Shown here piece by piece: positions 11,506 through 36,000 of a stretch of 64,000 bases of DNA (position 1 is its first letter; each line of letters opens with the position of its first letter). The stretch lies in contig OZ024741.1 of the NCBI GenBank assembly GCA_964016885.1, positions 24,738,001 to 24,802,000 of the forward strand, in the 5' to 3' direction. Both the position numbers and the translations under genes were made by a program. The stretch is from Eledone cirrhosa. Lineage: Eukaryota. The notes under the pieces are model-generated. The model saw nothing but the letters and a program-made list of their open reading frames with translations, searched no databases and was not told where the DNA came from.

Positions 11506-12025
11506 TTATAAAGCTTTCTCAGTTCATTTCTGGCTGCCAAGGGATGGTCGATCAAATCCTTGAAGTTCTTCACATCAACATATTTGTTGTAAAAAGAAGT
11601 ACACAATACCCTGTAGTGAGTATAACTAGGCAAACCATGATCTCTTCCTCTTTGTATGTATGAACTGCCCAGATCTAAATTATTTTTGAAAAGACTGGAA
11701 CTCGACTCCTCATCAATTCTGTAAGCTGAAACTTGTTGTGCTCTTTGGTTTAACTGACCTCTGACGAAGTTTTCAGCTCCAGTAATTGTTTGAAAGAGTG
11801 GTTTTGTATTTTTTGTGATGCTGCTAAATGGTAAGTAGTACTTTTGTTTAGAGTAAAATGATGGGCGTTTTATGAAGAGCCTGAAATGATCTTTCAGTTT
11901 ACATACTAGAGAATATTTTTTATCACGGTATGATAAAATATTTGCTTGTTGCATGAAATAGCCAAAACGTAAAACTGCAGTGGCTACAGAATTTAAGATG
12001 GAAGGATTTAGCTTGGGGTCATAAT
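11506..12025 (-). CDS. Copy A exon 10 (proximal heme region, LRFGY ... [11 protein letters not shown])
   Basis: Acceptor tacag|AT, donor AA|gtaaat. Encodes [22 protein letters not shown]...[25 protein letters not shown]...ELRKLY. Confidence 0.92.
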
Positions 12026-15000
12026 CTGTACAAATGAAAGAAAAAATTGAAAAAATTGAAAATATAAAATAAAAAGCAATTAACATAGAATATTAACATT
12101 GTAAATGTATATAACAAAAACAATATTATGTTTGTGTGTTTGTTACATTCATGTTTCATCTTGATGTTGAAAAATATTTTGACCTGTCATTCACCCTTAC
12201 CACACTACACCTTAACAATTCCAGTAGCTTTCTTAATAACAGTCAAAGAATCATTTACATCTATAACACAGATGTTCAAATTGTTCATCAAATACATATT
12301 ATGCCACATTCATAGGAATTGGAAAAATTCCAAGAATTAGAAAAAAAACCTGAATCAAAAGTCCTAAAAGTAAACTTAAAAAAGAGGACAGGAAGTTGAT
12401 AGTTTAAGGGAAGTGGTCTTGCTGGGTATGTTGAAAAACTGGGCAGAAATTTCATGAGATGCAATCAGTGCAATATATGGATGTACAAGAGATGTAGTGG
12501 GATTACAGGTAAACAGTATAATATATGGATGTACAAGAGATGTAGTGGGATTACAGGTGAACAGTGTAATATATGGATGTACAAGAGATGTAGTGGGATT
12601 ACAGGTAAACAGTATAATAATAATAATAATAATGAAATTATTGTGTACAGTGCTCAGGTGCACTACAACTCATCAAAGGTGCATGTATAGTACATAGAAT
12701 AATGTACAAATGTCAGGAAAATGAACAGTGTACGAGTCATGATATAATAACAATAACAATAACGAAATATTGTGTACAGTGCCCAGGTGCACCACAACTC
12801 ATCAAAAAAGTGCATGTACAGTACATAGGGCAATGCACAAACATCAGTCAAATGAACAGTGCACGAGTCATGATACACACATGTGTGCATGTGTATGGAA
12901 GGGGTACATCAGGTGTAGTTTTGGCGTATTTCGGAAAGCATGAGTGTCTTAAAGGATGCAGTGTCTCGGCAGCTAACAATTGACGCTGGCAGTTTGTTCC
13001 ATGCTTCAGCAACTCTGAGCGTGAAAAAATGTCTACGAAAGTCATGGGAGCTGTGCTGTTTTCTGATCTTGTAGGCATGTCCACATGTGTTAGACACATG
13101 GAGATCAAAGAGGCGCTCAGGGTTGCAGTTGGCGAGATGGTTAAAAACTTTGTGGGTATTCACCAAGTCCATTGCCAGACGTCGGAGCTTCAATGAATCC
13201 ATGCCCAGGGAAGCAAGGCGTTCAGAGTATGGTAGGTGTCTGATGGAGGGTATGCGCTTATATGGATGTACAAGAGATGTAGTGGGATTACAGGTGAACA
13301 GTGTAATATATGAATGTACAAGAGATGTACCTGGATTACAGGTAAACAGTGTAATCTATGGATGTACAAGAGATGTAGTGGGATTACAGTTAAACAGTAT
13401 AATATATGGTTGTACAAGATAAATAAAAAACAAGACAGAATAGAGATAAAATAAATTTCTTAAATTGTAAGGGAAGCTCCATAGAAGTTGTTGAGAGCTT
13501 ACTTAGGGAACCTTATCAACAGAAGAGGAAGGTGGTCTGAAATTGTGATAGCCAGGATAAGAGCAGGCGGGAAGTAGTTTAGAAAGCTGGTATTGCTACT
13601 GAAGACCAAGGGTTTCTCCCCCAGAGTGAAGAGTAAACTCTATGGTGCCAGCATGCAAATTCCAATGTTAAATGGTAGTGAGACATGGGTGTTAACTACC
13701 AAAGACCTGTGAAAGTTAGCAATAAATGAAGCAAATGTATACACACACATACATATATACTCATGTCTCGGACATGACTCCCTTAATTTAATTTAATAAA
13801 ATTTATTTCGGATATATACTATATATATATATATATATATATATATATATATATATATATTATAATATGGGGCTAACCGACCAGGGATGTGTAAATCACA
13901 TTTTAGTCAGTCGGCTGTGATGCAGGTAAAATAAAGCACACAACAATATGACTAAATGGTACAAGCTGGAGCATTATGGCCTTCGATCTATTTAATACTA
14001 TATATATGTGTATATATATATTGTTATATTTGGGGAGGGTCATGTTGTTATAATATTGCCAGAAATATATAGTAAAACACACTCACTGTTTGGTTTGGGT
14101 TGGTATATATATATATATAAACAATTTTGTCCACACAGTAAAACAAATGCATATATATCAAACACTTGATGGGGCTTTATATTTTCTAGACTGTTAAAGC
14201 ACACTTTTAGTTTGGTATTCTTGTCTTCTGGTGAGGTAAACCTGGTTACTTTAGGACTTCTGTTAATTCATTTGTAACTCTTTCTATATATTGATGTTGT
14301 CACCACTTCTATTATTGATTCATTGATTTATTGATCTATATGTAACCTGATATCCTATGTGAATAAACTCTGATGATACTAATTTTAAGCCTAATCCCAA
14401 TGGACGAAGTAGAAAATCATAAGGGAATTTTAGATAAACATTCTTTCTTCCTAAGAAATTTCTAAAATTTCTGAATTTATAATTTCACATCCTCAGAATG
14501 AATCTCTATCAGTTGAAACATGTGTTAGTTTGATAACATATAGATTCTTTGGTGTTTCTTATTCTTTATATATCAGCTCTGCATGAACCCTACTGCATTG
14601 AGCTTTAAACCCAATAATAGCAACATTGTTATTATTAAAGTTATATATATATATATATATATATATATTTCATGCTAGCATGGAAAAATGGACGTTAAAC
14701 GCTGATGATAATGATGATGATGATGATTTATGTCCCAAATGTAAAGTATGGGTACATAAAAGATGTAGTGGGATCACGGGTAAACTATCTAAGAACGTAG
14801 ACTTTATATGTGGCTGATGCTCAGGTGCAATAGGTAGCAAGTGTCCACAGGATACTAGCTCCTTCTATTGCCCAGATGGCTCTATAGAAATAGTGGACAC
14901 TTTCCGTTACCTGGGTGACGAAATCAGCAGTGGTGGAGGGTATTCTGAAAGTACAGTAGCCAGAGTCAGAATGGGATGGAAAAAGTTCAAAGAGCTTATA

Positions 15001-33000: not shown

Positions 33001-36000
33001 TAGTCCAGCCAGCGACTTGAAAACTTTGGTACAAACACTACACTTGTGACAATTACTGACACATAGTGCTGGGCCCATTGTACCATGTGATGACAAGTGC
33101 AGAGAGATCTCCAGATATAAATAAATGCCTGTGCCATGAAGCTTTTATAGTGAGCAAAGGCACTGCACAAAGCCAGTCCCACTCTCTTAACCAAGATGAT
33201 ATTTACCAAAAAGAAGAACACGTCAACATCATTGGATACCATCAGGGTTGCAGGTGCTATATCAGAGGTTTCCTTCTCCTAGAATTCTGCCTTGACAAAG
33301 GCTAAGGGGTCATCTCTCCCGGAGTTTTCCTTCTCCTAGAATTCTGCCTTGACAAAGGCTAAGGGGTCATCTCTCCCGTACATACATACATACATACATA
33401 TGTACATACATATGTACATACAATTTTCTGCAGACATCAGAATGAAATTTGGTGAGTCCAAGTGTGCATATTTCACAGTAAAACATGGAAGGGTTGTGCC
33501 CTCCTCTGGAAATCTAGAGATGAACAGCTTGACAATACAGCCTCTACAGTCAGGTGACAAATAAAGATATCTTGGACAGGATGAGAATGTCAGATATGAA
33601 GGACCCATAAAGAAGGAGAGAACCAGAACTGAACTGGTCATTGCAAGAACTAAGTGAGATGGATGTAAGAACTCGCAACCTTCTCAGGGTTACTGAAAAC
33701 TTTAACATCAATGGTGATGTGGATAGGCTATACTTCTCACGCAAGTAAGGTGGCCGGGATCTAAAATCCATATTAACATCATGCGAGTCCCGAATAGTAA
33801 CATTGAAGCAACATTGTCAACAGAAGAAAAAGGTCAGCAACCATCTTGCCCAAGTCTATGAGCATGAAGGAAATAATATCATTAGGATAACCACTGATCT
33901 GGAGGAGAGATATGGAATAAGGCCTGGTATAAATCTCTCTCCCAAGAAAATTGGAAGATCCTATTCAATGTTCGAACAAAATAAAAAAAATGGACCAATT
34001 TACAGAGAAGGTTGTGCATGGGTACCTGAGACGAAAAACAGAAACCATAGAGGGGATAAATCATTCAAAATGCCTGGCATGAAGTTCTGACAAGTTTATG
34101 ACATCCCAGTTTGAAGGATATCTCTATGCAACACAGGAACAAGAAATCCCTTCTAAATATCTGCTACACAAAAGAAGAGGGTCAACATTAAATGTAGTCT
34201 TTGTAATACAAATATCGAAGATGTTAGCCACATTGTTGTCTTCTCGCTACTACCCCCCCCCCCCCCCCACCTCCATGAGACACGATGTGATAGCTAGAAC
34301 CATCTGGAGTGCTTTTAGGAAAACAAAATTAAAAACAAATGAGGAGGAATATGTTGAGATAGATGGTACCAAAGAATACTGGTGGAACCTGAAAATAAAA
34401 ACTGCCACCAAATTAAAGCAAAACCGGCCTGATATTGTTGTTTGGGACCACACATTGAAAACGTGATCTGTTGTAGAGATCAGCTGCCCACTTGATGTCA
34501 ACGTTGCAAGAAAAATACTTAGAGAAGGAGGACATCTACAGACCATTGATGAGGAGTTTACAGATCCAGTATCCAAGATACCCATCATTATTGGAGCTAC
34601 AGGTTATATACCAACCCGCTTGGACCAAAGTATAATTGAACTTGGATTTGTGGACAGAGAGCGTAGCTCCCTAATTCAAAGACTACAAATGGCTGCGATA
34701 GCTGGCACCTTCAAAATTTTCAAAACATTCTTGCAATGACAATTTTTTTTTACAACCTTGCCACCAGGAAGGTGGCTGGTCAAAAATGTACTAAAAATTA
34801 AGAGAATGAGAAACATAATATACATTCATACATACATGCATACATTCATACATACATACATATTTCATGGAGACAGTCTCTCTGTGTTACTATACATATT
34901 GTCATTAAACCCCTTGTCCTTTCTGCTCAAGAAATATGAAGAATACATAATTGGTTCACAGAAGGACAAGAATACAAACCTAACCCTAACTTATTTGTGG
35001 ATGACTTGAAACTTTATGCCAAGGACATAAATAGAATGAAGAAAAACCTTATCCTGGTTACAACATTCTTGAAAGATATAAGAATGGAGTTTGGCCAAGA
35101 TAAATGTTCATATATGATTGTAAAACCAGGAAACTCTGCTAGTAGCCAATCTAGCAATATTTTTATCAATGGCCTGACTGTTTTATCAATATCACACGAG
35201 GACTGCTCTAGATACTTAGGGATAAATTGATTCTCTAAACACTTCCATTGATTCATCAACCAATCAGTACCAAATCTTTTTGTTAGATCTCAATATTTTA
35301 AACCAATCTTCACAACAACTGCTGCCAGTTCAACAAATATATTCTGAAAATCTGGGAAGTTATATCACCACTTGACTCAATGAATGTACTTATTTACCAT
35401 AAGCTCTCACATACCAACATTTTCCTACCTTCTTCAAGTCACCTGATATAAACTTTATTTTGAAATGCTTTACTTCAATAAACTATAAAAATATTTATTT
35501 CTAATTCAATATATTCAGACCTTATTGTAACTTTATATTCTGTCATCACAGCAGGATATATATTTTTGTAAGAATACAATCTTTTAATTATCTATAAACA
35601 TATATATCTCCAAACATACATCTAAGTTTTCCAAGACACAACTGTAAATTAGACGAATCACAACAAGTATGACTATATATGGACGAACTGATTTCTAAAT
35701 TCCAAGCCCTTATTCCCACCTCAAGCCCTAACTAAACCATCACCGGGTTCTCTTAAAGTTCTGTTTTAACAAAAAACTTACTTGATGGTCGTTTTGTATC
35801 TGACAGATCATTAGAAATTGCTTGTGAGAAGAAGACAGTAAACTGATTCAAATTTGACAAGAATTTGTGGCTGAAAGGTTTTCTAAATAGGTTACACCTA
35901 ACAACACGAGGGTTCGGTAATAATCCTCCATTCTTTCCATATATTTTTGGTTTAGAAACACCTGAAAAGTAGAGAAAAGATATAACAACAACAGCAACAA

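Follow-up and report, generated by a model that had tools for sequence, protein, structure and literature searches.

Gene structure at the locus

The 64,000-nucleotide stretch of Eledone cirrhosa DNA analyzed here (G000:C2:24738001-24802000 of a 3.0-Gb genome), hereafter the window, carries two copies of a gene that encodes a peroxidase domain (Pfam PF03098) interrupted in one of its loops by a histidine- and tyrosine-rich insert. Most of 14.4-44.0 kb recurs reversed at 45.5-64.0 kb, forming a palindrome with one gene copy per arm: copy A on the minus strand, which is the gene described in a first-pass annotation of this DNA, and copy B on the plus strand. The window gene's closest relative within this genome, here termed the sister gene, lies on the same chromosome (G000:C2:51.64-51.72 Mb), and the named proteins nearest to the window gene are octopod. 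Residue numbers are those of PMC3533774. Motifs were placed by six-frame translation, and the gene matches PF03098 exon by exon; exon ends were set by AG/GT motifs, so that GT-AG boundaries are true by construction and provide no independent test. The features are the following.

36176..36333, minus strand: copy A exon 1 ([10 protein letters not shown]...PDYQDG), whose twin in copy B matches PF03098 positions 1-31
35782..35961, minus strand: copy A exon 2, distal helix FFSQAISND (translation, alignment), with the Ser94 codon at 35813-35815 and the Asn replacing His95 at 35810-35812
31197..31224, minus strand: copy A exon 3, 28 nt, INCC; its counterpart in the sister gene has 43 nt
25326..30529, minus strand: copy A exon 4, 5,204 nt, with CFPI, the insert and SCINLVRS; the sister exon here has 107 nt
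24246..24335, minus strand: copy A exon 5, intact calcium-binding loop TSFLDGS (translation, alignment)
23060..23167, minus strand: copy A exon 6 (gene model)
16182..16427, minus strand: copy A exon 7, Arg239 kept (16417-16419), Glu242 changed to Asn (16408-16410), the His250 equivalent to Gln (16384-16386) and the His of QHIT to Tyr
11506..12025, minus strand: copy A exon 8, His336 changed to Tyr (11958-11960) and Asn421 to Tyr (11658-11660), Arg333 and Arg424 kept
G000:C2:24655695-24655852, 24654541-24654640 and 24653219-24653309, outside the window: copy A exons 9-11
53548..63421, plus strand: copy B exons 1-7, with the same active-site losses as A
53548-53705, 53923-54102, 56776-56803 and 57428-58083, plus strand: copy B exons 1-4
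59077-59166, 60245-60352 and 63176-63421, plus strand: copy B exons 5-7
44011..45452, no strand: palindrome centre, a unique 1.4-kb spacer with no N and no assembly gap

When the 11 domain exons of copy A are joined, the frame stays open for 2,293 codons, counted from where the domain begins. The first-pass annotation had reported intact reading frames and splice sites; the former stand, whereas support for the latter comes from the lengths of ten exons, which agree modulo 3 with their counterparts in the intact sister and provide a real test of the splice model. Its stated coordinates were 11506..35961, an interval that holds exons 2-8 but misses the exon at 36176-36333 and three more located ~94 kb downstream. 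In copy B, ten exons correspond to those of A and stay open over 747 codons; exons 8-10 lie beyond the window. Neither DNA nor protein searches of the assembly recovered the last exon of this copy, and the assembly has a gap ~4 kb after exon 10. Four exons match PF03098 with E-values between 5e-5 and 2e-28 and one more with 0.001, and the RGRDHG and calcium-site patterns did not occur in any of 100 shuffles of the window; hence, the peroxidase match is not due to chance, and homology across the domain supports descent from the peroxidase-cyclooxygenase superfamily. A 41-nt AG...GT candidate exon is also seen at ~48670-48710 (plus strand, B) and 40739-40779 (minus strand, A), and could encode a signal-peptide start ([13 protein letters not shown]); read in a different frame, it could be a linker exon of compatible phase.

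Intron divergence between A and B is uneven, ranging from 0 to ~25% mismatch beside different exons, a patchiness that fits paralogs with gene conversion, although A and B may instead be two haplotypes assembled side by side. In all three public runs, which behave as DNA and come from one sample that is possibly the assembly's own, contigs are identical to the window over 11499-12470 (exon 8) and differ from it by one letter, the B allele, over 16090-16543 (exon 7).

Replacement of the catalytic residues

The columns of Asp94, His95, Arg239, Glu242, His336 and Asn421, located with MAFFT and a hidden Markov model and tied to myeloperoxidase through P0010 versus 6bmt/12cl, hold Ser, Asn, Arg, Asn, Tyr and Tyr, respectively. 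Copy A reads, on the minus strand, SQAISND at 35807-35827, TSFLDGS at 24295-24315, GDERSNN at 16408-16428, (Q)TIFLREHN at 16360-16386, LRFGY at 11958-11972 and (Y)IQRGRDHG at 11634-11660. Within the window, the plus strand shows SQAISND, TSFLDGS, GDERSNN and [10 protein letters not shown] for copy B, the LRFGY/YIQRG exon of which falls just past the window end. The five active-site substitutions listed in the first-pass annotation are thus present in both copies at the catalytic columns, and the alignment with the myeloperoxidase-anchored family places Asn at the distal and Tyr at the proximal column of A and B, instead of His. The same annotation was right in describing an intact TSFLDGS calcium site, carried by both copies, and a difference between them at the His250 equivalent, which is Gln in A (QTIFLREHN) and Arg in B (RTIFLREHN).

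Gln91, Asp96, the calcium loop, Arg239, Arg333 and Arg424 are kept, and with them the calcium site (Asp96 and TSFxDxS) and the distal Arg239 and Gln91 expected of an active peroxidase. The labels Arg333, Arg424 and His250 are those that we take to apply to these positions; His250 would belong to a proton relay, a term for which a literature search gave no paper. The distal His95 is Asn in both copies (His in 207 of 220 other rows), the proximal His336 is Tyr (His in 250 of 283), its hydrogen-bond partner Asn421 is also Tyr (Asn in 240 of 293), and the heme-ester residues Asp94 and Glu242 are Ser and Asn. The roles of His95, His336 and Asn421 in peroxidase chemistry are established (PMC3533774), and a product lacking all three is very probably devoid of classical peroxidase activity. 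Absence of the ester residues carries a different weight, as nematode peroxidases without them are reported to be functional in PMC6368334.

The Tyr at position 336 could alternatively act as the axial ligand of a heme protein, one that either stores heme or has weak catalase or peroxidase activity. It sits exactly in the proximal column, in a protein that keeps Gln91, Arg239, Arg333, Arg424 and the calcium site, and the same replacement is seen in 20 of the 283 other domain rows. Such recurrence, however, can reflect mutational ease, since CAT to TAT is a single transition, and in 9 of these 20 rows the domain is the first of two and is followed by a His-bearing one, which suggests redundancy. 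The row set, retrieved by a degenerate query, is biased. With the distal His lost too, both ester residues absent and a bulky Tyr in place of Asn421, we consider Tyr-ligated heme binding quite unlikely.

Origin of the gene and order of the losses

An exhaustive homolog search yielded one close relative among 352 matches, Octopus bimaculoides A0A0L8IF09, the longer model of which (XP_052826901.1; LOC128248768, 'uncharacterized protein') is 70% identical to the window protein over 543 columns and is here termed the ortholog. Searches with exon 8 gave 10 distant matches among longer proteins and none near the query length, and the full-length ortholog query retrieved no further cephalopod among its 78 matches. 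The sister gene groups with the 'chorion peroxidase-like' proteins of O. vulgaris, O. sinensis and Argonauta, and the window gene and its ortholog form the clade sister to this intact clade, with UFBoot 100 in IQ-TREE and 0.98 in FastTree (37 rows in FastTree; 17 of these in IQ-TREE, without short or divergent paralogs and several outgroups). The IQ-TREE stem of the window and ortholog clade measures 0.90 versus 0.49 for the intact clade, and the branches after the split are ordinary (0.23 for the window gene, 0.27 for the ortholog).

The octopod chorion-peroxidase-like proteins (CAI9727684.1 of O. vulgaris, XP_029641804.1 of O. sinensis and GAB1603572.1 of Argonauta hians) resemble the window gene in Ser/Ala94, calcium site, predicted fold and exon phases, but they keep His95, Glu242, His336 and Asn421, lack the insert and are only 34-36% identical to the window protein. 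In all four intact sister proteins the residues are Q-[SA]-H-D, R, E, H, N, which indicates that Asp94 was already gone before the duplication; its replacement by Ser, which had been counted among the signs of inactivation, consequently says nothing on that point. The ortholog, in turn, reads S-H-D, Arg, Ser242, His336, Phe421, Lys424. It shares with the window gene a His/Tyr-rich insert in the same loop, dibasic sites and the replacement of Asp94, Glu242 and Asn421, and differs from it in keeping both the distal and the proximal His, in the size of the insert (763 aa) and in the change of Arg424 to Lys. Because the ortholog also lacks Glu242 and Asn421, these were lost in the common ancestor of both species, and because it retains distal His, Arg and proximal His, the loss of both His residues is recent. 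Exon 2, for instance, is 75% identical to its counterpart in the ortholog, where the motif is SQAISHD.

Both His losses are single-base changes (AAT and TAT, versus CAT in the sister gene). Among 146 columns common to the ortholog and two sisters, 13 are changed in the window gene, affecting 4 of 8 His and 9 of 138 other residues (p=0.002, post hoc); besides His95 and His336, the changed His are the equivalent of His250 and the one in QHIT. Weighing against this reading, 16 of 149 comparable columns are changed in the ortholog, and overall rates are thus alike. On these alignments, the gene arose by duplication of an octopod chorion-peroxidase-like gene, gained its insert in the loop flanked by CFPI and C..L.RS and underwent a stepwise loss, in which the shared ancestor lost Glu242 and Asn421 and the window lineage then lost His95, His336 and two more His. 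The first-pass description of an active site that had been systematically replaced is thus correct as to the substitutions but overstated, given that Asp94 is Ser or Ala in four of four intact sisters and that the ortholog keeps His-Arg-His.

Purifying selection and fold

Identity between the window gene and its ortholog increases with family conservation (53, 67, 84 and 90%) much as it does in the intact pair (50, 60, 78 and 92%), for classes derived from 133 canonical domains in a set rich in fish peroxidases; in the top class, comprising columns conserved at 90% or more, copy A keeps 71 of 85 columns and the sister gene 81 of 85. Copies A and B, both of them His-less, differ over 743 codons by 3 synonymous and 2 nonsynonymous changes. 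Although this coding comparison rests on five changes, the proportion of nonsynonymous differences (pN) is 0.0011 (2 in 1,766 sites), that of synonymous differences (pS) 0.0065 and that of intron differences 0.0084 (82 in 9,715 sites, taken from seven BLAST blocks), and the nonsynonymous and intron rates differ significantly (Fisher p=2e-4). Purifying selection, as read from these substitutions, continues after the His losses, an argument that holds whether A and B are paralogs or haplotypes.

These figures also bear on the possibility of a young pseudogene or relaxed duplicate, in which the His losses would mark the onset of decay and frames would be open because little time has passed. Both key changes are indeed single-base, the A/B comparison comprises only the five coding changes, copy B lacks the last exon and most of the insert, and the 5' exons were not found. 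Nonetheless, pN lies 7-fold below intron divergence, the 5.2-kb repeat exon has neither stop nor frameshift, the branch since the O. bimaculoides split is no longer than that of the ortholog, and the losses concentrate on His instead of falling at random. No stops, frameshifts or neutral divergence were found in the gene, copy B's last exon being absent from the assembly, and we regard decay as highly improbable.

An AlphaFold model of the C-terminal 453 aa of the ortholog (predicted local distance difference test, pLDDT, 83) superimposes on myeloperoxidase with a template modeling (TM) score of 0.75-0.79, so that a myeloperoxidase-like helical fold is predicted for that part of the ortholog. 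The earlier proposal that selection keeps the fold but not the chemistry holds for this species as regards the missing His and proximal Asn, the open frames and the purifying selection, the loss of activity itself being predicted from the residues.

A histidine- and tyrosine-rich insert

Exon 4 of copy A sets 1,708 residues between CFPI and SCINLVRS, of which 456 are His (27%), 156 are Tyr (9%) and 2.7% are acidic. The first-pass annotation had given the protein no role and noted this insert only in passing, even though it makes up about three quarters (74%) of protein A, and 59% of the ortholog model. It contains 75 [10 protein letters not shown]-type decapeptides, along with Ser/His tracts and one RNKR site, and its coding frame contains no stops, compared with 19-298 in the other five frames. 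Among the 75 units, 12 of 20 possible synonymous and 20 of 70 possible nonsynonymous single-base variants are seen. The insert of copy B (exon 57428-58083) has 192 aa and one RNKR site and is 4,548 nt shorter than that of A, in frame; at its junction, a few bases match neither side. In the ortholog, the 763 aa located in the same loop contain 34% His+Tyr, other repeats and three RYKR sites. The unique 3' part of the insert is found in the genome only in the two window copies. Pfam contains no family for the insert, and the ESM Atlas returned no usable match for that of the ortholog; for the domain it gave only PF03098 clusters.

The squid beak proteins DgHBP-1 to -3 are, like the insert, His-rich, repetitive and low in acidic residues, a likeness that is one of analogy, with no homology shown. 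Motif and composition do not mark the insert as a DgHBP homolog: A, B and the ortholog have no GHG motifs, and Gly+Ala+His amounts to 39, 12 and 23% of the respective inserts, versus the more than 50% stated in PMC11931252; the insert is, moreover, rich in Pro, Tyr and Ser and embedded in an enzyme fold. A non-catalytic peroxidase carrying such cargo could still serve another hard tissue, such as beak, radula or sucker cuticle, in view of the His-rich proteins that stiffen squid beak (PMC9999432 and PMC11931252). We deem this decidedly unlikely, as the insert has neither the GHGXX repeats nor the composition of beak proteins and the expression evidence is oviducal only.

Expression and proposed role

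The expression evidence comes from Octopus maya, for which PMC8976471 reports more of a 'chorion peroxidase' transcript in the oviducal glands of females that had been fertilised (P=0.016); that study regards this gland as the source of egg cement and deals with no other organ. The quantitative PCR primers of that study match the spliced window model at 15 of 20 positions each, exactly the published 116 bp apart and spanning the exon 1-2 junction, as opposed to 20 of 40 positions at best in the sister gene, and the reverse primer encodes PFNAKC, present in 1 of 271 proteins compared, the ortholog. The transcript, which is that of Table 5 of PMC8976471, is listed in the supplement with 3.43E-09 beside PERC_AEDAE. 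It maps to the insert-bearing degenerate branch and not to the intact chorion-peroxidase-like gene, which calls for caution, since it has been credited in print with chorion hardening.

On balance, it seems somewhat more probable than not that the gene encodes a selected, non-catalytic peroxidase framework, which is likely secreted and serves the egg coat or cement as carrier and scaffold of its own His/Tyr-rich insert. The protein would be secreted by the oviducal gland, secretion being a family trait, and the O. sinensis sister protein begins with a hydrophobic, signal-like segment. A furin-type protease might then cut at RNKR, the His-rich repeats could condense by pH or metal binding, and an intact peroxidase, for example the product of the sister gene, may cross-link the Tyr of the insert in trans, in which case catalysis by the protein itself would be dispensable. 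A more elaborate version, which we put forward tentatively and consider rather doubtful, would see here an egg-cement precursor caught in mid-conversion: a self-cross-linking peroxidase with its own substrate loop, still bearing His-Arg-His in O. bimaculoides, and in E. cirrhosa a dead chassis for folding and secretion, the cargo of which condenses and is cross-linked in trans by the sister enzyme.

Several observations weigh against the carrier or scaffold role. Expression is documented for O. maya and its oviducal gland only, and the signal-exon search could fix no signal-peptide exon for the window gene. The RNKR site of A is close to the C-terminus of the insert, and a single cut would leave the repeats attached to the N-terminal piece. 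The model of window exon 8 alone is weak (predicted TM score 0.44), with myeloperoxidase as best match at E 0.13. With His-Arg-His and no ester residues, the ortholog could still be active and, given the functional nematode enzymes mentioned above (PMC6368334), so may the family as a whole. Finally, copy B, without most of the insert and without a last exon in the assembly, has a domain as conserved as that of A.

This last point would be expected if the dead domain were a regulatory pseudoenzyme that binds to the active sister peroxidase or to its substrates and docks or dampens this enzyme, with the insert anchoring it to the matrix. Precedents are PXDNL with PXDN, as reported in PMC10686858, and, as a proposal, BLI-3 with MLT-7 (PMC6411640). 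An insert that makes up 59-74% of the protein and carries dibasic sites is nevertheless better suited to bulk cargo, and we hold regulation to be unlikely.

Impaired peroxidase domains as such are already known. The DUOX/BLI-3 domain, vertebrate peroxidasin 2 (PXDNL) and the first domain of two-domain peroxidases of arthropods and nematodes, such as salmon louse LsPxtl-1, also keep the fold without heme or catalytic residues (PMC6411640, PMC3533774 and PMC10579435), but they adjoin an oxidase, a second peroxidase domain or leucine-rich-repeat and immunoglobulin modules, whereas the window gene has a single domain with low-complexity protein in a loop and has lost both His. What is unusual is this single domain with a large, probably structural protein in its loop, with both His intact in one octopus and lost in another. 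No description of such an architecture was found in the open literature, a scope that leaves out most subscription journals. If the carrier or scaffold role is correct, the gene product is a candidate component of the egg strings or chorion of octopuses, this material being an underwater cement for which literature searches found no description of the proteins, and the ortholog with both His and the window gene without them form a natural pair for assaying the steps from enzyme to structural protein.

Other peroxidase genes and repeats

Elsewhere in the genome, four of six peroxidase genes examined on C17 (at 36.19, 24.87, 13.37 and 28.26 Mb of G000:C17) lack the proximal His in open exons, and two of these also lack the distal His (EFLMRD, QFLNFD); the C17 set looks like a separate radiation of degenerate peroxidases. 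Divergent PF03098 matches are also present at G000:C913:36-50 kb, which looks DUOX-like by its motifs, and at C26:22.29-22.37 Mb.

The palindrome is gene-sized, extending in window coordinates over 10700-67565 with arms around a centre at position ~44.7 kb. Intron 8 spans ~94 kb in A versus ~9 kb in B, and in the part examined that of A is largely satellite, which occupies at least 68 kb of it and covers window positions 1-8600 and 10700-11340. Retroelement remains with reverse-transcriptase-like frames, assigned to this class by eye, lie in introns at 8664-10700, 14727-15900 and 17000-21600; several occur in one arm only, and read depth there is very high. Open frames ([16 protein letters not shown] units) also occur in a 48-bp minisatellite at 39197-39959 and 49504-50698, which differs in copy number between arms and is probably non-coding.

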